64,000 nt of DNA. Source: an uncultured Anaerolineales bacterium. GTDB lineage: Bacteria; Chloroflexota; Anaerolineae; B4-G1; SLSP01. The stretch covers positions 52,406-116,405 of the forward strand of contig CAYTGR010000002.1 of assembly GCA_964437445.1 (NCBI GenBank), in the 5' to 3' direction. The notes under the pieces are model-generated. The model made no database searches and was not told the DNA's origin. It worked only from the letters and a program-made list of their open reading frames with translations. Shown in pieces: positions 1 through 8,838 of this stretch (its first letter is position 1; every line of letters begins with the position of its first letter). Made by a program: the position numbers and the translations under genes.

Positions 1-726
1 GTCCAACCGGTCGGCGTCAATCAGCGAGACGTTGAGGATGTCCTGGATGACCTGGCTGAGCCGGTCTACCGCGTCGGCCACTTTTTTCAGCAGATTGCGG
101 GCGGAGCCCTCTTCTTCCAGGCTGCCGGGGATGGCCGGGTTGGCCAACATGATCTGTACGTAGCCATAGATCACGGTGAGCGGTGTGCGCAACTCGTGCC
201 CCGCCAGGATGACGAAGTCTGACTTCATCTTTTCCACCCGCTGCAGCTCGCTGTTCGCCTTCTCCAACTCGCGTACTTTTTCCTCCAGGCGCGCGACCAG
301 GCGCTGGTTGTACTCTAACAGATATTCGGCGCGCTCTTCAATGGAGGAGACTTGATCCTGCATCCCGACCAGGTAAGCCCGCACCTGGTCGGGGAACTGA
401 TCAACGTCAATGGGTTTGGGGATGTAGCCGTTGCAGCCGGCCACCAGGGCCCGTTCCCGGTCTCCCCGCAGCGTCGCCGCGGTGACGGCGACCACCGGGA
501 CCTTTTCCAGCCCTTCCATGGACCGCAAGCGGGTGGTTACTTCATAGCCATCCAGGCCGCTGATGTTGATATCCATCAAGATCAGATCGGGTTTATCTTT
601 GCGCGCCGCTTCAATGGCCGAGATCCCGCTATCGGCCACGGTAACGGTGAACCCTTCCGACATCAAGATGCGCTGGACCAAGCGCTGGCTGGATGGATCA
701 TCCTCAACGTAAAGTATTCTGGTCAT
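1..726 (-). CDS. Hybrid response regulator/histidine kinase (REC + HisKA), 3' end beyond window start
   Basis: Manual translation from ATG at 726: MTRILYVEDDP...DLILMDINI...GYIPKP (receiver), then a coiled coil and H-box GHELRTPL. ATGA overlap with the stop of the upstream gene. Absent from the ORF track because it is truncated. Confidence 0.9.
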   Translation of the reverse strand, partial: MTRILYVEDDPSSQRLVQRILMSEGFTVTVADSGISAIEAARKDKPDLILMDINISGLDGYEVTTRLRSMEGLEKVPVVAVTAATLRGDRERALVAGCNGYIPKPIDVDQFPDQVRAYLVGMQDQVSSIEERAEYLLEYNQRLVARLEEKVRELEKANSELQRVEKMKSDFVILAGHELRTPLTVIYGYVQIMLANPAIPGSLEEEGSARNLLKKVADAVDRLSQVIQDILNVSLIDADRLD

Positions 727-2444
727 ACTTCTTCTCCTTTTTCCCTGCCCAGAAGGGCATTAATCCCTGCCAGGAGGTCCTCATCCATAAAAGAGCCTTT
801 TTGCAACAGCATCTGGATGCGCCCCTGGAGGCGTTGACGTTCGGTGGCAGTCAGCTCTTTGGCAGTAATGACGATGACCGGCAAATCTTTCAGCTGTTCA
901 TCGGCTTTCAATTCGTCCAATACGGCAAAGCCGTCCATATCCGGCATCATCAGGTCCAGTAACACCAGGTCGGGGCGGGTGGCGCGGATCAAATCCAGCC
1001 CTTCGTGACCCGTGTGAGCCTCGGCGATCTGGAAATCGCCGCGGGTTTGAAGGATGCGCCGGAGCAGGCGGGCGGCCTCGGGGTTGTCCTCCACGATCAC
1101 AATGCGGTGCGTGCGGGCATCCAGTTGTTCCAGCGCCCCCAACAGATCTTCGGAGGCGGGTTCCTGGCGGACCGGGGCGACTGGGGCGGCGGCGGCGGCC
1201 GGTACCACTTTGAGCCAGTCTTTCTCCAGTACGAATTTTTCGACCGCGAAGGTGTGCCCGGAGCAGTTAACGACCACTACGTCCTGCCGCTGGATCACGC
1301 CTTTCCCCAGCAGCTTGAAAAGACCGGCGAAGGCGGCTGCGGCCGCCGGCTCCATAGAAATCCCCTCCATTTTTGCCAGCACTTGCAGCGCTCTGAAAAT
1401 TTCCTCGTCGGTCACATCCTCAAAAACGCCCCCGTGTTCCTTGACCACGTGGTAGAGGTGGGTATAAGCCGGGCCAGGCGTGCCGGTGGCAATAGTAATG
1501 ACGCGGGTGGTGGGGTTCAAGACGGGGATGGCCTCAGCGCGGTCAGCGCGGAAGGCCTGGACCATCGGCGCACAGCCGTTCGCCTGGATCAACGCCAGCT
1601 TGGGCACCCGGTCCACCAATCCCATCTGATAGAGCTCCTGGTAGCCTTTCCAGAAGCCGATGGGGCCTAAGCCACCACTGATGGCCTGGATGAACCAGTC
1701 AGGCGCTCGCCAGGGGATGCCGGGTTGGGGCGGGCCGAACCGCTCGGCCAGCTGCTCGGCCAGCTCAAACGCGATCGTTTTCATGCTTTCCCGCGTGCCG
1801 ATGTCGCGCATTCCCCGGTCGGCCAGAATGCCTTTGTGGCTGGCAAAGCGCGCGGCCACCTTCTTGGTGATGTCGTAAGTCGCACTTACCTTGATCACTT
1901 CACTGCCGTAAATCGCGATCTCCCGCATTTTCTCGGGGGGAACCAGACTGGGCAGGAAAGTCCAGAGCTTGATGCCGGCATGGGCCGAGTAAGCCGAATA
2001 GGAGATCGCGACGTTCCCGGTGGAGGCGACCACCAGCTCGGTGACACCGGATTCTTTCATCAGGGAAATCACCAACGCTGCCTGGCGGTCTTTGAAGGAG
2101 TTGGTGGGGTTTTGCCGCTCGTCCTTGATAAAAAGGTTGGGGGTGCCCAACATCATGCCCAGGTTACGGGCGTGCAGCAAGGGTGTGCCCCCTTCTCCCA
2201 TGGTGATCAGGTACTGGTCGTTGCGCAAGGGGAGCAGCTCCCGGTACCGCCACATCTTGAAGGCGCGCGAGCGCAAAATGTCCGGCCAGATGCGACTGAC
2301 CCGCGCGTAGTCATAGCGGGCCTCCTGCCACTCATGGCCGCAGCGTGGGCAGACCGGTGTGGGAATTTGATAAGGATGCCGCTGACCACAGGCGGCACAT
2401 TCCAGTTCGATCTCCAACGGGATAGCAGGGGGACTTAACCACAT
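723..2444 (-). CDS. Threonine synthase-like PLP enzyme fused to a C-terminal receiver domain
   Basis: N-terminal CxxC pairs, PLP lysine motif NPTNSFKDR, ASTGN, SMEPAAAAAFAG. C-terminal IVIVEDN...DLVLLDLMMPDMDG...ITAK receiver. Start placed at ATG 2444 (track TTG 2540 overlaps the promoter). Confidence 0.88.
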   Translation of the reverse strand: MWLSPPAIPLEIELECAACGQRHPYQIPTPVCPRCGHEWQEARYDYARVSRIWPDILRSRAFKMWRYRELLPLRNDQYLITMGEGGTPLLHARNLGMMLGTPNLFIKDERQNPTNSFKDRQAALVISLMKESGVTELVVASTGNVAISYSAYSAHAGIKLWTFLPSLVPPEKMREIAIYGSEVIKVSATYDITKKVAARFASHKGILADRGMRDIGTRESMKTIAFELAEQLAERFGPPQPGIPWRAPDWFIQAISGGLGPIGFWKGYQELYQMGLVDRVPKLALIQANGCAPMVQAFRADRAEAIPVLNPTTRVITIATGTPGPAYTHLYHVVKEHGGVFEDVTDEEIFRALQVLAKMEGISMEPAAAAAFAGLFKLLGKGVIQRQDVVVVNCSGHTFAVEKFVLEKDWLKVVPAAAAAPVAPVRQEPASEDLLGALEQLDARTHRIVIVEDNPEAARLLRRILQTRGDFQIAEAHTGHEGLDLIRATRPDLVLLDLMMPDMDGFAVLDELKADEQLKDLPVIVITAKELTATERQRLQGRIQMLLQKGSFMDEDLLAGINALLGREKGEEV

Positions 2445-2546
2445 GTCAATTGGCTCTCTCTCTATGTTCAGGCTTCTTGAAAAGTTTCCATAGCGAAATA
2501 TTACTCCCCTATAGAGTATCATAAGTTGTGAGAAGGGCAAGTTTTA

Positions 2547-2573
2547 TTCTTAAAAAGGGGGACTTTTTAAGAA
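2547..2573. promoter_or_regulatory. 11-bp perfect inverted repeat in a divergent promoter region (candidate operator)
   Basis: TTCTTAAAAAG-GGGGA-CTTTTTAAGAA. Confidence 0.45.
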
Positions 2574-2640
2574 ATGAGCCGTGACGGTGTTGAAAAAGGC
2601 GGTTGGCCTGAAAATTGCCTGCTCCTTTTTCCATGACAGT

Positions 2641-2669
2641 TTGTCATTTCTCCAACTTGCTCTTATAAT
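2641..2669 (+). promoter_or_regulatory. Sigma70-type promoter of the kinase operon
   Basis: TTGTCA (2641-2646), 17 nt, TATAAT (2664-2669); about 100 nt upstream of ATG 2768. Confidence 0.75.
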
Positions 2670-2767
2670 CATAGTAGTATTGGTGACCTAGGTGGGTAGA
2701 TAACGCAAATTGTCGTGGGGTCATAGGCCGGGGAAGACCATTGGGGGGATTATTATTGAAGGGTGAT

Positions 2768-4867
2768 ATGGCAAACTCAGACGATTCTGCCCAACGCAAC
2801 ATTCCACCTCAAGATCTGGGGACGCGCCAGATCCGGGGACTCTCGCAGCGTTTGCGCCGCCCGCTGACGCCGGAGGCCAATCTGCCGCCTGATGCCGCTC
2901 CGCCCGCGCCACCACCGGAGCCGGCGGAATCTGCTCCGCCGCTGGCTGAGGCAACTGTGCCGCCGGCTCCCCAACCGCCGCCGGCAGATTCTTCGCTGCA
3001 CACGCGCCCGGTCAGCTCACAGGCTAAACCGTCACGGGATGGCCTGTTGACTGAGGGGACGATCCTGCAATCGCGGTACAAGATCTTGGGGGTCATCGGA
3101 ATCGGTGGGATGGGGGCCGTGTACAAAGCCCAGGATTTGCGTTTTGCCAACGTGACTCGCATTTGCGCGGTCAAAGAGATGATCAACACGGCGACCGATC
3201 CGCAGGTGCGGCAGATGATCGTTCACAACTTTGAGCGGGAAGCCAGTATTCTGGCGACGCTCAGCCATCCGGCTATCCCGCAGGTCTACGATTTTTTCAC
3301 GGAGGGAGCGCGCAGCTACCTGGCGCTGGAGTTCATCAACGGCAAGGACCTGGAAGCCATCCTATCGGAGACGGAAGGATTTATCTCTGAAGTCCAGGTC
3401 ATTGACTGGGCGATCCAGTTGTGTGATGTTTTGATGTATTTGCACAGTCACAAGCCCCGGCCGATTATCTTCCGCGACTTGAAACCCTCCAATATCATGC
3501 TGGACGACCACGACCGGATCCGGTTGGTAGACTTTGGCATCGCCAAGCTTTTCCAGAGCGGGGAGCGAGGCACCATGATCGGGACGGAAGGGTATTCGCC
3601 CCCTGAGCAGTACCGGGGGATGGCCGAACCGCGCAACGACATCTATTCTTTGGGGGCGACACTCCACCATCTGTTGAGCAAACAGGACCCGCGTCTGGAG
3701 CCACCGTTTTCTTTCCATGAGCGGCCGATCCACAAGACCAATCCCACCGTCTCGCGGGAGCTGACCGAGATTGTGGAGAAGGCGCTGATGTACGACGTCA
3801 ACCAGCGCTGGGGCTCGGCCGATGAGATGAAACGGGCCTTGCTGACCCTCCCCGGTGCACGGGGGATCGCGGGCGGGGCTCCCAAAGAGACGGCGGCTTT
3901 CGCCGCGGGCAGTGTCAAGCCGCTCTGGCGCTTTGCCTGTGAGGACGAAATCCGGGTGGCGGTGGCTGTGTCAGAAGGGGTGGTCTATGTGCCCTCCTAT
4001 GACCACAATGTCTACGCTTTGGAAGCGTCTTCCGGCAAGTTCATGTGGAAGTATGCCACGGAAGGAGGCATTGCTTCCACTCCCTGGGTGCTGGAGGATT
4101 TTGTGGTCTTTGGCTCCACCGATACAGTAGTTTACGCCGTGGAAGCCCGGACCGGACGGTTAGTCTGGACTGCGCCCACCAAGGGGAAGATTTTCTCCTC
4201 GCCCTACGGTGAATTTGGGCACCTGTTTATCGGTTCAGATGATAGCAACTTGTATGCGATCCATGGGCCGAGCGGCCGGATCGCCTGGACCTATCATGCC
4301 GATGGGCAGGTCCGTACGCGCCCCATTCTACAGGAAAATATGATTTTCTTTGCCTGCCAGATGGGCATGGTCTACGCCTTGGGGCTTAACCGGGAGCTCA
4401 AATGGCGTTTCCACGCCCGGCGCGGGTTCCTGGCCGCCCCCACGCTGGGCAAAGGATTGGTTTTGATCGGTTCGCTGGACTGGAACCTGTATGCTCTGGA
4501 CCTGCGTTCCGGTTGGACGGCCTGGCGCTATCACACCGGTGGGTCCATCGTCTCCACGGCGGCCGTGGCTGAAAATCTGGTGTTGTTTGGCTCGGCCGAC
4601 AACTTCATTTATGCGTTGGATACAGCGGAGGGCCGGTTAGTCTGGCGCTATCAAACGGAGGGGCAGGTGACAGGCTCACCAGCCGTCTACGGGGAAAATG
4701 TCTATATCGGCGGGGTTGACGGATCGCTCTACTGTTTAGAGGTACGCACGGGGAAGCTGCGCTGGCGCTATCAGATGGGCGGCGCCATCACCGGGGCTCC
4801 GGTGATTGAAGACGGTGTGCTTTACATTGGCTCCAATGACCGTTACGTTTACGCTATTCCGGCCTGA
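2768..4867 (+). CDS. Hanks-type Ser/Thr kinase with C-terminal PQQ-like beta-propeller (AfsK-like architecture)
   Basis: GIGGMGAVY, AVKE, RDLKPSN, DFG and GTEGYSPPE motifs; repeated 'G..vW.y' propeller blades; Pro-rich N-terminus; no transmembrane helix seen. Confidence 0.93.
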   Translation: MANSDDSAQRNIPPQDLGTRQIRGLSQRLRRPLTPEANLPPDAAPPAPPPEPAESAPPLAEATVPPAPQPPPADSSLHTRPVSSQAKPSRDGLLTEGTILQSRYKILGVIGIGGMGAVYKAQDLRFANVTRICAVKEMINTATDPQVRQMIVHNFEREASILATLSHPAIPQVYDFFTEGARSYLALEFINGKDLEAILSETEGFISEVQVIDWAIQLCDVLMYLHSHKPRPIIFRDLKPSNIMLDDHDRIRLVDFGIAKLFQSGERGTMIGTEGYSPPEQYRGMAEPRNDIYSLGATLHHLLSKQDPRLEPPFSFHERPIHKTNPTVSRELTEIVEKALMYDVNQRWGSADEMKRALLTLPGARGIAGGAPKETAAFAAGSVKPLWRFACEDEIRVAVAVSEGVVYVPSYDHNVYALEASSGKFMWKYATEGGIASTPWVLEDFVVFGSTDTVVYAVEARTGRLVWTAPTKGKIFSSPYGEFGHLFIGSDDSNLYAIHGPSGRIAWTYHADGQVRTRPILQENMIFFACQMGMVYALGLNRELKWRFHARRGFLAAPTLGKGLVLIGSLDWNLYALDLRSGWTAWRYHTGGSIVSTAAVAENLVLFGSADNFIYALDTAEGRLVWRYQTEGQVTGSPAVYGENVYIGGVDGSLYCLEVRTGKLRWRYQMGGAITGAPVIEDGVLYIGSNDRYVYAIPA

Positions 4868-4887
4868 GCCAGTAAGGTGAACGAATC

Positions 4888-5835
4888 ATGCGACAGTGGA
4901 TTGGTTGGTTAAGTGATCGGCTGAGAGCCAGAGGGGCAGAATCCCCGGCCGATGTATCGGATACGCCCCCCTTGCCGGAATTCATGCCTGAATTAACGTT
5001 GGAAGAATCGGAAGAAAAAACTATGACAATGCCTCTACCACTTTCAAAACAGCCGGCTCATTTGATCAGGTTGGCCTGGAAGACCGACGTAGGACAATTG
5101 CGCAACCATAATGAGGATACCCTGGTTGTTTTTCTGGGCCAGCAGGAGGGGATGGTGCCCCTGGTCTCGTTTGGATTGTGCATTGTGGCCGATGGGATGG
5201 GAGGGCATCAGGCCGGTGAATTGGCCAGCGCGCTGGCCAGCCGTGTCGTGGCCAGCTATCTGCTGGAACATGTCTACCTTCCCTTGTTGCAGGAAGACGC
5301 CCCGGAACCCGAGCCGGATTCGTTGGCCGAGATGGTGCGGACGGCCATTGCCCAGGCCAATGACGCGGTCATTGAGACCTTCCCGGGCAGTGGCACAACC
5401 CTCACCAGCGCCCTGCTGTTGGGGGCCCATTTGTTGATTGGACATGTGGGTGACAGCCGGGCCTACCTGTTGCGGCCGGAGGATGGCCTCCAGCAGCTAA
5501 CCGCGGACCATTCATTGGTTTACCGGTTGGTGGAAATGGGGCAACTCAGCCCCGAGGAAGCGGGGGTACACCCGCAGCGTAACGTTCTGTACCAGGCAGT
5601 GGGCCAGGGAGCGCCATTGCAAGTGGATGTGATAGCGCAGACTTTGCAACCTGGCGAGCGGGTGCTCCTGTGCAGTGATGGACTGTGGGAGATGGTCAAC
5701 GATGCGACTATCCAGCGTCTCGTTGAGGAATCCTCCTCCATCCAGGCTGCCTGCGAGTCCCTGGTCGGTGCCGCCAACGAGGCCGGCGGCACCGATAACA
5801 TCACTGTGATGATGGCAGAACTAGCTGAGAGTTAG
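4888..5835 (+). CDS. PP2C/PPM family Ser/Thr phosphatase
   Basis: RNHNED, VADGMGGH, HVGDSRAY, LCSDGLW and GGTDNITV motifs. Confidence 0.93.
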   Translation: MRQWIGWLSDRLRARGAESPADVSDTPPLPEFMPELTLEESEEKTMTMPLPLSKQPAHLIRLAWKTDVGQLRNHNEDTLVVFLGQQEGMVPLVSFGLCIVADGMGGHQAGELASALASRVVASYLLEHVYLPLLQEDAPEPEPDSLAEMVRTAIAQANDAVIETFPGSGTTLTSALLLGAHLLIGHVGDSRAYLLRPEDGLQQLTADHSLVYRLVEMGQLSPEEAGVHPQRNVLYQAVGQGAPLQVDVIAQTLQPGERVLLCSDGLWEMVNDATIQRLVEESSSIQAACESLVGAANEAGGTDNITVMMAELAES

Positions 5836-5844
5836 GATTGTAAC

Positions 5845-7305
5845 ATGGGTGCGTTTGATCCAGAAAAAGATTATTACGCCGCTTTGGGCGTCCCTGTGGA
5901 GGCCAGTGAAGAGGAGATCAAAGTGGCCTACCGCGATCTGGCGCGCCGTTACCATCCAGATTCCGGTGGCGATGCGGAGCGCTTCCGCCAGATCCAAGAG
6001 GCCTATGAGATCTTGCGCGATCCCACTCTACATCGGGCTTACGACCGTCAACGCGAAAGCCGGGGATTGTCTCAGGAATCGCCCTTAGTAATAGGATTGA
6101 CCCTCAACCGGACCAACATGCAACCGCTGGAAGTCCCCCAGATGCTTTATGTGCTGGTGGATATCCGGCCGCGTGTGGATCTGCCGAGCCAACGGCTCCC
6201 GTTGAACTTGGCTTTGGTGATTGACCGCAGCACCTCTATGCAGGGAGTGCGGATGGAGAACGTGAAGCTGGCCGCCCTGGACCTGGTGGAGTCGTTGTTG
6301 CCCGGCGATCGTCTCTCGCTGGTGGCCTTCAGCGATCGGGCCGAGGTGATCGCTTCGGGGCTGTCGGTCAGCGATAAACGCGCTTTGCGCTCGGCCATTT
6401 CGGCCCTCATGCCCGGCGGCGGAACCGAGATCTGCCGCGGGTTGACGGCCGGCCTGGACGAGCTCCGCCGTTACGTCAGTGATCAATATCTCAACCACTT
6501 GATCTTGCTGACCGATGGGCGTACTTATGGGGATGAAGAGCAATCTTTGAGCGAGGTGCGGCGGGCCGGTGCCCAAAAGATCGGCATTTCCGCGTTAGGA
6601 ATTGGCGAGGACTGGAACGATCTTTTCCTGGATGCCCTGGCGCGTCAGGGGGGTGGAATCTGCCAGTATATCCGTTCACCCTCACAGGTGCGGCAGTTGT
6701 TGCGCGATCAAATCCGTGGCCTCAGTGCCGTGGTGGCCCGCCAGGTGCGATTGGTCATCAATCCTGCGCCCAATGTCAAAATCCAGGCGGCGTTCCGGGC
6801 GGCCCCTTACATGGAATATCTCACGCTGGAAAACGGTACGACGCTGAAGTTGGGCAACATGGGGGTGGATGAGCCGATTGCGTTAATCCTGGACCTGGTC
6901 GTCCAGCAGCCGGAACCGGGGGAGCGACGCCTGGCCCGGTTGGAATTGGAGGCCGCAACAGCCAACGACACTGCTGTGACACTTCAGTTGCGCCGGGATC
7001 TGGCGATGACCTTTTCTTACAGCGCCCAGGATGAGCCGGTCCCTGGTCGGTTGTTGAATATGCTGTCACGGTTGAGCATTTTCCGGCTACAAGAGCGGGC
7101 TTGGGAACTGGCGGAATCTGGCGACGTTCAGCAAGCGACGAATATGTTGCAAGCGGCGGCAACGCGGCTCTTTGACCTGGGTTACAAGGAATTGGCCCAG
7201 GTGGCATTGACCGAAGTGGGGCGGCTTTCTGCCGGGGGAGCCCCCACCTCGGAAGGTCGGAAGCGTGTACGCTATGGCACACGAAGTTTAACCAGTCCTG
7301 TTTAG
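5845..7305 (+). CDS. DnaJ-domain / vWA-domain fusion protein
   Basis: J domain (DYYAALGV...RYHPD); vWA MIDAS motifs DRSTS, GGT and LLTDG. Confidence 0.88.
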
Positions 7306-7317
7306 GAGGGGCGAAAA

Positions 7318-7845
7318 ATGCCTGACAAGAGTGTAAAAGTCATTTGTCCGTCTTGTGGTGCCGAGAATTTGACGGGTACGTTGTTTTGTGTGCAGTGTGG
7401 CATTTATCTACCCTTTGGTGGGCCGTTGCGGACGGAGCCGCTTCCGGAGCAGGGCCAGGGCCAGCGGCCGACGGCGACTGACCGGCGTACGGATACGCAG
7501 GAGGGGAAGGCCCTGAGTCTGGAGATGGAAATCCTGGATACCGGGCGTAAAGTTTGGTTGTCGGCCGAGCGCGAAATTTTGGTCGGCCGGCTGGATGCAG
7601 CGCATGGTATTTTCCCTGAGCTGGATTTGGGAGTAGACGGTGGGTTGGAGCACGGTGTCTCCCGCCGTCAGGCTCGCATTTATACCAAGGATGGGGTCTG
7701 TCTGTTGGAGGACCTGGATAGCACTAACGGCACTTTTCTCAACGGCGAGCGGTTGACCCCTTATTTGCCCTACACTTTGCACAACGAAGATGTTTTGACC
7801 TTCGGCACCATGCGCCTGAAGATCTATATTTACACCAGTAAATAG
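7318..7845 (+). CDS. Zinc-ribbon + FHA domain protein
   Basis: CPSCG...FCVQCG; FHA motifs VGR, VSRRQA and STNGTFLNG. Confidence 0.88.
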   Translation: MPDKSVKVICPSCGAENLTGTLFCVQCGIYLPFGGPLRTEPLPEQGQGQRPTATDRRTDTQEGKALSLEMEILDTGRKVWLSAEREILVGRLDAAHGIFPELDLGVDGGLEHGVSRRQARIYTKDGVCLLEDLDSTNGTFLNGERLTPYLPYTLHNEDVLTFGTMRLKIYIYTSK

Positions 7846-7862
7846 CCCGGCGGAGGGGAACG

Positions 7863-8105
7863 ATGCCTTATACGATTCTTATTCATTTACTCAATGAGGA
7901 CCCCGTGGTTGGGGAAGTGGAGGAATTGCCCGAGGCCAGCATCAGCTTCCTCAAAGTGACCAGCCCGCGCTTGCGCGATGGCCGGGATGTGCCCTATCTC
8001 ATGCCAGAAACGGCCACTGTGCTCTACCCCTTGGGCCGCATTCATAGTGTGGAGATCTTGCCGACTGAGGGAGAGGAAAAGATTGTCACTTTCATCCGGG
8101 AGTAG
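7863..8105 (+). CDS. Small hypothetical protein (80 aa, beta-rich)
   Basis: RBS GGAGG upstream, tight operon spacing, globular-looking sequence. Confidence 0.7.
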
Positions 8106-8838
8106 CAGTTCTCAGAGCCATCCGTTGGTTTTGATCGTGGACGACGAGCCACGGATCATCCGCTTTGTCCGGATTAACCTGGAAATGGAAGGGTTCCGGG
8201 TGGTGGAGGCCCGGAACGGCCTGGAGGCTTTGGATCAGGTGCGGGAGAAGATGCCGGACCTGGTGTTGTTGGATGTGATGATGCCGGAGATGGATGGGTT
8301 TGAGACGCTCCGGCTCATCCGTGAGACTTCCAACGTGCCGGTGATCATGCTGACGGTACGCAACGAAGAGGAGGATAAAATCCACGGGCTGGACCTGGGG
8401 GCGGATGACTACGTGACCAAGCCGTTCAGCCCCCGCGAGCTGGTCAGCCGGGTCCGGGCGGTGTTGCGCCGGATGCAGCCGCTCACTCCGGCGGGCTCTT
8501 CCGTGCTGGAGGTGGATGAGCGTCTCAGCGTGGATTTTAATACCGGCGAGGTGATTGTGGCCGGGGAGCGGATCAAACTGCGGCCTACCGAATTCCGCCT
8601 GCTCCGCCAGCTCATTGAGAACGCCGGCTGGACGGTGCCGCATGCGACCCTGTTGGCCAAAGTGTGGGGCTATGAATATCAGGACGCCACTCCTTACCTG
8701 CGTCTTTACATCAACTACCTGCGACAAAAAATAGAGCCGGATCCCGAACACCCACGTTATATATTTACGGAACGAGGGTTGGGGTACCGTTTTGTGGAAC
8801 TGGCGCCACCCGCCAAAAGCGCCGCCGGGGCTAAATAG
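8083..8838 (+). CDS. OmpR/KdpE-family response regulator
   Basis: [27 protein letters not shown] and winged helix ([16 protein letters not shown]...TERGLGYRF). Start uncertain: TTG 8083 after GAGGA is preferred. Confidence 0.9.

Follow-up and report, generated by a model that had tools for sequence, protein, structure and literature searches.

Transcription, motility and second messengers are known targets of two-component systems. Can such systems also act directly on an enzyme of amino-acid metabolism? The question is raised by a gene in a 64,000-nucleotide (nt) stretch of DNA from an uncultured Anaerolineales bacterium (contig CAYTGR010000002.1, positions 52,406 to 116,405 of the forward strand), which we refer to as the window. 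The gene encodes a protein, here called PALP-REC, in which a pyridoxal-phosphate (PLP) domain of the threonine synthase (ThrC) fold is joined to a response-regulator receiver (REC), and it overlaps a gene for a histidine kinase with a receiver of its own (REC-HK). A reading of the sequence alone, hereafter the original prediction, had proposed either a phospho-switched metabolic enzyme or a sensor of PLP or O-phospho-amino acids feeding a phosphorelay.

We found a conserved fusion that is always embedded in two-component gene clusters and whose enzyme domain resembles threonine synthase (TS) but is probably not one. On balance we lean, with reserve, towards a phospho-switched PLP enzyme that would act on a transported amino-acid-like compound, with the coupled REC-HK as its likely phosphoryl donor in this lineage.

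Results

PALP-REC is a genuine and conserved fusion

PALP-REC is encoded by a single uninterrupted open reading frame (ORF) that starts from an ATG at position 2444 of the window (Table 1). An alternative TTG start at 2540 would add a 32-amino-acid (aa) extension, which the homologues are without. Only PALP, of fold type II (203.2 bits, residues 80-395, cut-off 35), and Response_reg (78.2 bits, residues 448-551, cut-off 30.2, profile positions 1-101 of 111) were recognized by Pfam; domains of the MocR/GabR type were absent from its results.

More than 120 homologues of 64-99% identity have both domains in one ORF, and neither these nor independent metagenome contigs had a stop codon or frameshift between the domains. 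Runs labelled with 10 different studies, from metagenomes of wastewater, sludge, biofilm and fermenters, contained the exact PALP-REC sequence, and contigs of two studies besides the best-matching one crossed the domain junction without insertion or deletion. Single-base variants in four runs fell in the enzyme domain, in linker and receiver, and also in the first part of the kinase gene, and 32 of 34 were synonymous. Because 29 of the 31 variants inside the PALP-REC gene itself were synonymous, purifying selection is indicated on enzyme domain, linker and receiver alike. An assembly or frameshift artefact is ruled out by the two-domain homologues, the indel-free independent contigs and the synonymous variants. 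The fusion on which the original prediction rested is therefore real.

The family was found in Chloroflexota only, chiefly in Anaerolineae, and many genomes with the fusion have two paralogues. In databases the family members are annotated as 'pyridoxal-phosphate dependent enzyme' or 'threonine synthase', and no account of a PALP-receiver protein was found in full-text literature searches. In a sample of 301 Chloroflexota genomes, the closest full-length relatives (61-64% identity) came from two genomes labelled as belonging to the same phylum only (G002 and G015), and genomes of the same class reached just 53-57% identity to PALP-REC. This could mean that a natural group is split by the classification, or that the gene has crossed from one class to another.

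PLP and receiver signatures are intact

The original prediction had listed the PLP lysine in SFKDR, the CxxC pairs, and the acidic pocket, Asp, Thr and Lys of the receiver; direct inspection found all of them. The PLP lysine is K118 (codon 2091-2093, minus strand), and it is accompanied by an ASTGN carboxylate loop (140-144), an SGGLGP loop (256-261) and S395-G-H-T. The receiver carries VEDN (451-454), with the acidic pocket E452-D453, followed by LLD497LMMPDMDG, VIT527AK and QK549G; the phospho-acceptor D497 is encoded at 954-956 (minus strand).

Conservation was examined in an alignment of 58 sequences with identities down to 42% (alignment A1). K118, S141, G143, N144, E219, G258, G260, P261, P323, G396, H397 and T398 were invariant, and residue 395 was S or T in every sequence. 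In the N-terminal ribbon C16, C19 and C32 were invariant and C35 was kept in 57 sequences; the same type of Cys4 ribbon also occurs in PRK08197-type ThrC and in the canonical ThrC of this genome. The receiver kept D497 and T/S527 in all 58 sequences, and E/D452, D453 and K549 in 57 each. Judged by these residues, both the PLP chemistry signature and the receiver signature are intact.

An AlphaFold2 model built from 58 aligned sequences had a mean predicted local distance difference test score (pLDDT) of 80.5 and a predicted template modelling score of 0.75. With a pLDDT of ~90, the enzyme domain was confidently predicted to have a ThrC-like fold. The linker was predicted to be disordered, and the receiver was modelled with moderate confidence at first and poorly in its last third.

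This low confidence in the C-terminal third might reflect a pseudo-receiver that is not phosphorylated and serves as a docking or dimerization module only. Such a role would also fit the Gly that follows K549 in 56 of the 58 sequences, where Pro is usual, and the degenerate receiver of a distant member of the family (P0127). The residues of the phospho-chemistry are essentially invariant, however, and histidine kinases are always adjacent, and we consider a pseudo-receiver hardly credible.

The enzyme domain departs from threonine synthases at the substrate site

By fold, the enzyme domain belongs with ThrC: the PALP match scores 203 bits, K118 is kept, and the S-T-G-N residues show next to no variation (T142 in 31 of 32 fusions). 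The best Foldseek matches of the domain were threonine synthases, with template modelling scores of 0.81-0.84, and the nearest solved structures by sequence were also threonine synthases (27-31% identity). PALP-REC nevertheless missed every NCBIfam ThrC cut-off, with 265.2 bits against 303 for PRK08197, 153.6 against 167.1 for TIGR00260 and 189 against 421 for PRK05638. Non-fused ThrC proteins of the same phylum passed, at 510-576 bits for PRK08197 and 278 bits for TIGR00260.

To locate the difference, 32 fusions were aligned with five solved TS (Thermus, Aquifex, M. tuberculosis, B. subtilis and Arabidopsis). The scaffold around PLP and the alpha-carboxylate was kept in the fusions (K61, S84, T85, G86, N87, E162, G244, P246, T317 and G318 in Thermus numbering). 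Five further residues are invariant in the solved TS, namely Thermus T88, N154, S155, R160 and N188, which we take to line the site of the O-phosphohomoserine phosphate in the Thermus 1V7C complex. None of the 32 fusions kept any of the five: T88 was replaced by V, A or I, N154 by R, M, Q or K, S155 by G, R160 by A, T, S or G, and N188 by G. Two loops differed as well, GNAGN of the solved TS being SGG(L/M/I)GP in the fusions, and AIxIGNP being (A/S)TGxPGxxY. Because the distal substrate-site residues shared by the five solved TS are replaced family-wide, specificity for an O-phospho-amino acid is unsupported, and with the failed cut-offs this part of the original prediction lacks support.

The genome also has a second, canonical thrC, as the original prediction had suggested checking. 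It lies on contig C94 (locus L006, 3569-4894), scores 215 bits, which is above the cut-off, and encodes a protein with a Cys4 ribbon of its own and the intact motifs of plant-type TS (HTGSFKDLG, ASTGDT and GNLGN). Next to it (L006, 5041-6267) is a homologue of cofactor-independent phosphoglycerate mutase that matches the 'proposed homoserine kinase' model TIGR02535 (473 bits, cut-off 446). No genome was found in which a member of the clade is the sole ThrC; every examined carrier has another, higher-scoring canonical ThrC.

The fusion clade descends from stand-alone enzymes

A search of 1.84 billion representative proteins yielded only ~8 clusters of full-length fusions when grouped at 50% identity, together with stand-alone proteins of 375-435 aa that share the signature of the fusions (SFKDRQ, SGGxGP and TGxPG). 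At least one of these, P0134, is a complete stand-alone ORF with its own stop codon within the contig. In a maximum-likelihood tree, the enzyme domains of the fusions formed one clade (Shimodaira-Hasegawa-like approximate likelihood ratio test, SH-aLRT, 100) whose stem, at 1.51 substitutions per site, was the longest inner branch of the tree, and this clade lay outside the solved TS, the group that passes TIGR00260 and the PRK08197 group. A second tree joined the fusions and eight stand-alone proteins in one clade (SH-aLRT 99), again outside the TS groups. Because stand-alone lineages branch at the base of this joint clade, the fused domain is best traced to an uncharacterised family of stand-alone enzymes, and the fusion itself has a single origin in the tree. 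One stand-alone protein, P0129, branches from within the fusions, a position suggestive of a secondary loss of the receiver.

Two stand-alone genes that are 90-92% identical to P0129 were found in metagenome-assembled genomes labelled Rhizobium sp. and Pseudanabaena sp. (L064 and L065). After these, Anaerolineae fusions come closest (~60-65% to the same query), which suggests mis-binned contigs or a recent transfer after loss of the receiver. In L040 (223-2605), the gene for a distant stand-alone relative (P0140, 42% identical) follows that of a PylC-like ATP-grasp ligase at a distance of 8 nt, which hints at a role of some wider-clade members in small amino-acid-ligation pathways.

A housekeeping threonine synthase is ruled out by the missed cut-offs, the replaced TS residues, the separate clade, and the canonical thrC and proposed homoserine kinase elsewhere in the genome. 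Cysteate synthase was rejected likewise (TIGR03844: 108.5 bits, cut-off 324.9). A genuine second TS, which would convert O-phosphohomoserine into threonine and be tuned by phosphorylation much as the plant enzyme is activated by S-adenosylmethionine (SAM), deserves separate consideration. All the best database matches are threonine synthases, with Lys, ASTGN loop and overall fold retained. Position 218, which adjoins the position of the TS arginine, is R or K in 26 of the 32 fusions and might replace that arginine, and the nested P0129 barely passes two NCBIfam ThrC cut-offs (305.5 against 303 and 180.9 against 167). The window protein, in contrast, stays below all of them, and neither the loss of all five invariant residues, nor the long branch of the separate clade, nor the higher-scoring canonical ThrC in each carrier, which here adjoins the proposed homoserine kinase, would be expected of a second TS. 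We regard this alternative as very unlikely.

PALP-REC is always embedded in two-component gene clusters

We typed 40 fusion loci from Chloroflexota genomes by local profile searches, checked with Pfam. All 40 lie in a His-Asp (two-component) gene cluster and have a kinase gene adjacent to the fusion. A histidine kinase gene is directly upstream on the same strand in 35 loci; in the other five, which comprise the window's lineage and locus L020, a REC-HK gene is directly downstream. The signalling link drawn by the original prediction is upheld by this context.

In type I (23 loci), a PAS/GAF hybrid kinase of the form HK-REC or HK-REC-REC and up to ~1,770 aa long stands immediately upstream, and an EamA gene follows PALP-REC directly or one gene later. 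The type I unit is usually convergent with a set of GAF-kinase, REC-GAF-kinase and OmpR genes. Type II consists of a kinase, PALP-REC and a stand-alone receiver, often followed by a non-fused PRK08197 ThrC. Type III, formed by the window and its 70-82% identical orthologues, has no upstream kinase and no EamA gene, and PALP-REC overlaps the REC-HK gene by 4 nt. The bridging locus L020 has PALP-REC, then REC-HK, then EamA.

The ATGA overlap with a REC-HisKA gene was seen as originally described, and the kinase proved to be of the REC-HisKA-HATPase_c type (Table 1). The 4-nt overlap is repeated in the orthologous loci L007 and L009 (7725-7728), and orthologues of the window's REC-HK (85% and 68% identical) occupy the same position in related loci. 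The kinase gene extends 534 nt past the start of the window. In its full form (L004:11467-12726) it encodes 419 aa, in which Pfam found its own receiver and no other sensor domain.

Two sludge libraries labelled RNA-Seq (X8 and X9) have contigs over window positions 1-2800 that include both genes, the ATGA junction and the intergenic region. They may represent real transcription, but since the intergenic region is covered too, DNA carry-over is conceivable and we make no claim of co-transcription.

The fusion co-occurs with an EamA transporter

In 24 loci (the 23 of type I and L020) an EamA gene follows the fusion directly or with one gene between. The encoded protein is of the carboxylate/amino-acid transporter type and matches TIGR00950 weakly. 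A profile built from seven fusion-linked EamA proteins found an orthologue in the window's own genome (C5:16945-17892, minus strand) at 306 bits, whereas the remaining EamA genes scored 46 and 33 bits. One neighbour of this gene encodes a 1986-aa protein.

Across the 301 genomes, the main-clade fusion (E below 1e-190) and the EamA subfamily (E at or below 1e-25) were present in exactly the same 26 genomes, and none had one alone. The naive Fisher test gave p = 4e-38, and within the class (24/0/0/10) p = 8e-9, both values being uncorrected for shared ancestry and inflated by it. The co-occurrence holds where the two genes are unlinked (G000, G210 and G250). In family f4 the transporter was found only in the genus that carries the fusion, and genomes with only other fusion subclades had no transporter of this subfamily. 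From this distribution, the enzyme and the EamA transporter appear to work together, which is the strongest functional clue that we obtained.

Neighbouring genes and a second paralogue

Divergent from PALP-REC in the window is an operon for a Ser/Thr kinase with a pyrroloquinoline quinone (PQQ) beta-propeller, a PP2C protein, a DnaJ-vWA protein, a Zn-ribbon-FHA protein, an 80-aa protein and an OmpR-type regulator. The same gene order, likewise divergent, is found in the 70-82% identical loci L007/L008 and L009, with PP2C missing in L009. Because this divergent arrangement is conserved, the two units can be said to travel together. The operon and its OmpR-type regulator are a candidate input and parallel output, and we treat them as context only.

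The same genome encodes a second paralogue, PALP-REC-REC (693 aa, 48% identical), on contig C14 (L005, 4219-6300, minus strand). Encoded in its cluster are a PAS/GAF histidine kinase of 1425 aa, a receiver-adenylate/guanylate cyclase and two single receivers. The paralogue falls in another fusion subclade, one without EamA co-occurrence.

Table 1. Features of the PALP-REC locus, in window coordinates
Feature	Position	Strand	Evidence
PALP-REC gene, 573 aa (Zn ribbon, ThrC-fold PLP domain, linker, receiver)	723..2444	-	
Cys4 zinc ribbon, N-terminal, C16xxC19 and C32xxC35	2340..2399	-	Alignment A1
Fold-type-II PLP domain, residues 80-395	1260..2207	-	Pfam, AlphaFold2, Foldseek, residue table against solved TS
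Ala/Pro-rich linker, ~50 aa, residues 397-445	1110..1256	-	pLDDT <50 for residues 397-429; no conserved columns
Receiver, residues 446-565	750..1109	-	Pfam, 78 bits
ATGA stop/start overlap with the kinase gene	723..726	-	PALP-REC stop TGA 723-725, kinase ATG 724-726
REC-HisKA-HATPase_c kinase, first 242 codons	1..726	-	Pfam on window part and full gene
Divergent neighbour operon, Ser/Thr kinase to OmpR-type response regulator	2741..8838	+	ORFs; gene order in orthologous loci
OmpR-type regulator of neighbour operon	8128..8838	+	

Discussion

In this study we describe a family of proteins that probably place an amino-acid enzyme, itself working with an EamA-type transporter, under the direct influence of a kinase signal. 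In the mechanism that we propose, PALP-REC would be a catalytically competent PLP enzyme of the ThrC fold whose distal substrate pocket has been remodelled towards a new specificity, and it would have been drawn into a His-Asp signalling pathway as an enzymatic branch. Enzyme activity would change when D497 of the tethered receiver at the C terminus is phosphorylated, and given the disordered 50-aa tether, the likeliest route would be dimerization of the receiver or its docking on the enzyme dimer. As phosphoryl donor, the translationally coupled REC-HisKA-HATPase kinase is the likeliest candidate in the window's lineage, and the giant upstream PAS/GAF hybrid kinase in most relatives. The substrate may be an alpha-amino acid-like compound moved across the membrane by the dedicated EamA transporter, which in this genome is encoded on another contig.

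Several observations weigh against this mechanism, in addition to the shared ancestry behind the co-occurrence statistics. The receiver is C-terminal, unlike that of classic regulators with an enzyme output. The AlphaFold2 model gives the switch no structural basis, because neither a contact between the domains nor a docked receiver is predicted with confidence, the linker is disordered, and the alpha4-beta5-alpha5 face of the receiver has a low pLDDT. In this genome the EamA gene is unlinked to PALP-REC and has no signalling genes nearby. The neighbourhoods of the stand-alone relatives differ from one another (PylC-like ATP-grasp ligase; epimerase and methyltransferase; housekeeping genes) and give no shared clue to the reaction, the contigs of L039 and L063 being too short to inform. 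Finally, no domain of the window's two-gene unit except the PLP domain is a candidate for ligand binding, which fits a sensor role too.

That last point leads to a different view of the protein, as a metabolite-gated connector or sensor whose PLP domain binds an amino-acid ligand as external aldimine with no net turnover. The ligand would alter how the receiver accepts or holds its phosphoryl group, or its contact with the receiver of REC-HK, and in this way a metabolite would tune the relay. REC-HK requires an input, and neither gene of the unit has another sensory domain; a C-terminal receiver is also found in CheV-type and hybrid-kinase modules, and conservation of the PLP site is equally expected for ligand binding. 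Most relatives, however, have large upstream PAS/GAF sensor kinases and would not need an additional sensor, and the basal stand-alone relatives have no signalling partner. A receiver alone, moreover, cannot hand phosphate to a kinase. The perfect co-occurrence with the transporter is more simply explained by a substrate or product, although an imported signal is conceivable. The facts fit both halves of the original prediction, phospho-switched enzyme and PLP sensor. Because of the stand-alone enzyme ancestors and the transporter co-occurrence, which tip the balance without settling it, we favour the enzyme and consider a pure sensor unlikely.

A broader interpretation extends the phospho-switched enzyme into a phosphorelay-gated module that would make and export an amino-acid-derived extracellular compound, either a signal or a public good of the kind expected from filamentous Anaerolineae in sludge and biofilms. 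In the window's lineage this module would have been switched from giant PAS/GAF kinases to the REC-kinase beside the Ser/Thr-kinase/PP2C/FHA operon. We consider this extension distinctly unlikely; if true, a single metabolic output would be coupled to both of the major phospho-signalling systems of bacteria.

If the phospho-switched enzyme is correct, a receiver that directly controls a PLP amino-acid enzyme would be a new output class of two-component systems and would provide a post-translational path from environmental sensing to amino-acid-type metabolism. The hosts are of wider interest, as filamentous Anaerolineae abound in wastewater, sludge and biofilm communities. The perfect co-occurrence with EamA makes the idea of a joint enzyme and transporter testable with ordinary tools, and the remodelled ThrC pocket may hold new PLP chemistry.

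Among known systems, the closest are the short bacterial TS (Thermus 1UIM/1V7C, Aquifex 2ZSJ, M. tuberculosis 2D1F and B. subtilis 6CGQ/6NMX) and the Zn-ribbon ThrC of PRK08197. With these PALP-REC has in common the fold, the SFKDR lysine, the ASTGN loop, E219, the S/T-G-H at the PLP nitrogen and the Cys4 ribbon. It differs from them in its low identity (27-31%), the five replaced TS residues, the attached receiver and its separate clade. Plant TS with a SAM-responsive N-terminal extension (1E5X and 2C2B, both Foldseek matches) are similar in that a regulatory region is appended to the ThrC fold. That extension binds a small molecule, whereas the region appended here is a phospho-receiver, and plant TS, like the canonical ThrC of this genome, keep the TS-specific residues. 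Cysteate synthase (TIGR03844; CapA2, 9K3C, Foldseek rank 10) shares the Zn-ribbon ThrC fold and evolved a new reaction from TS. PALP-REC is only 21% identical to it and falls far short of its model (108.5 against 324.9 bits), and cysteate synthase is without a receiver.

A PLP-fold domain that serves as a ligand sensor is known from GabR/MocR regulators, in which a fold-type-I aminotransferase domain is combined with a winged-helix DNA-binding domain. PALP-REC likewise joins an enzyme-derived PLP domain to a signalling module, and GabR/MocR are thus a precedent for the sensor alternative; unlike them, it combines a fold-type-II ThrC domain with a receiver.

Response regulators with enzymatic outputs include the methylesterase CheB, the diguanylate cyclases PleD and WspR, and the phosphodiesterase RpfG. 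As in CheB, PleD and RpfG, a phosphorylatable-type receiver and an enzyme form one polypeptide in PALP-REC, encoded beside a kinase, in an arrangement for post-translational control. The receiver of the CheB/PleD/RpfG type is N-terminal with a short linker, whereas that of PALP-REC is C-terminal on a long disordered tether, and the output is a PLP amino-acid enzyme. Full-text literature searches found no description of a PLP-dependent amino-acid enzyme as the output of a response regulator. Compared with these systems, PALP-REC would stand out as a response regulator by its unprecedented PLP-enzyme output, its inverted domain order and, in the window's lineage, its rewiring.

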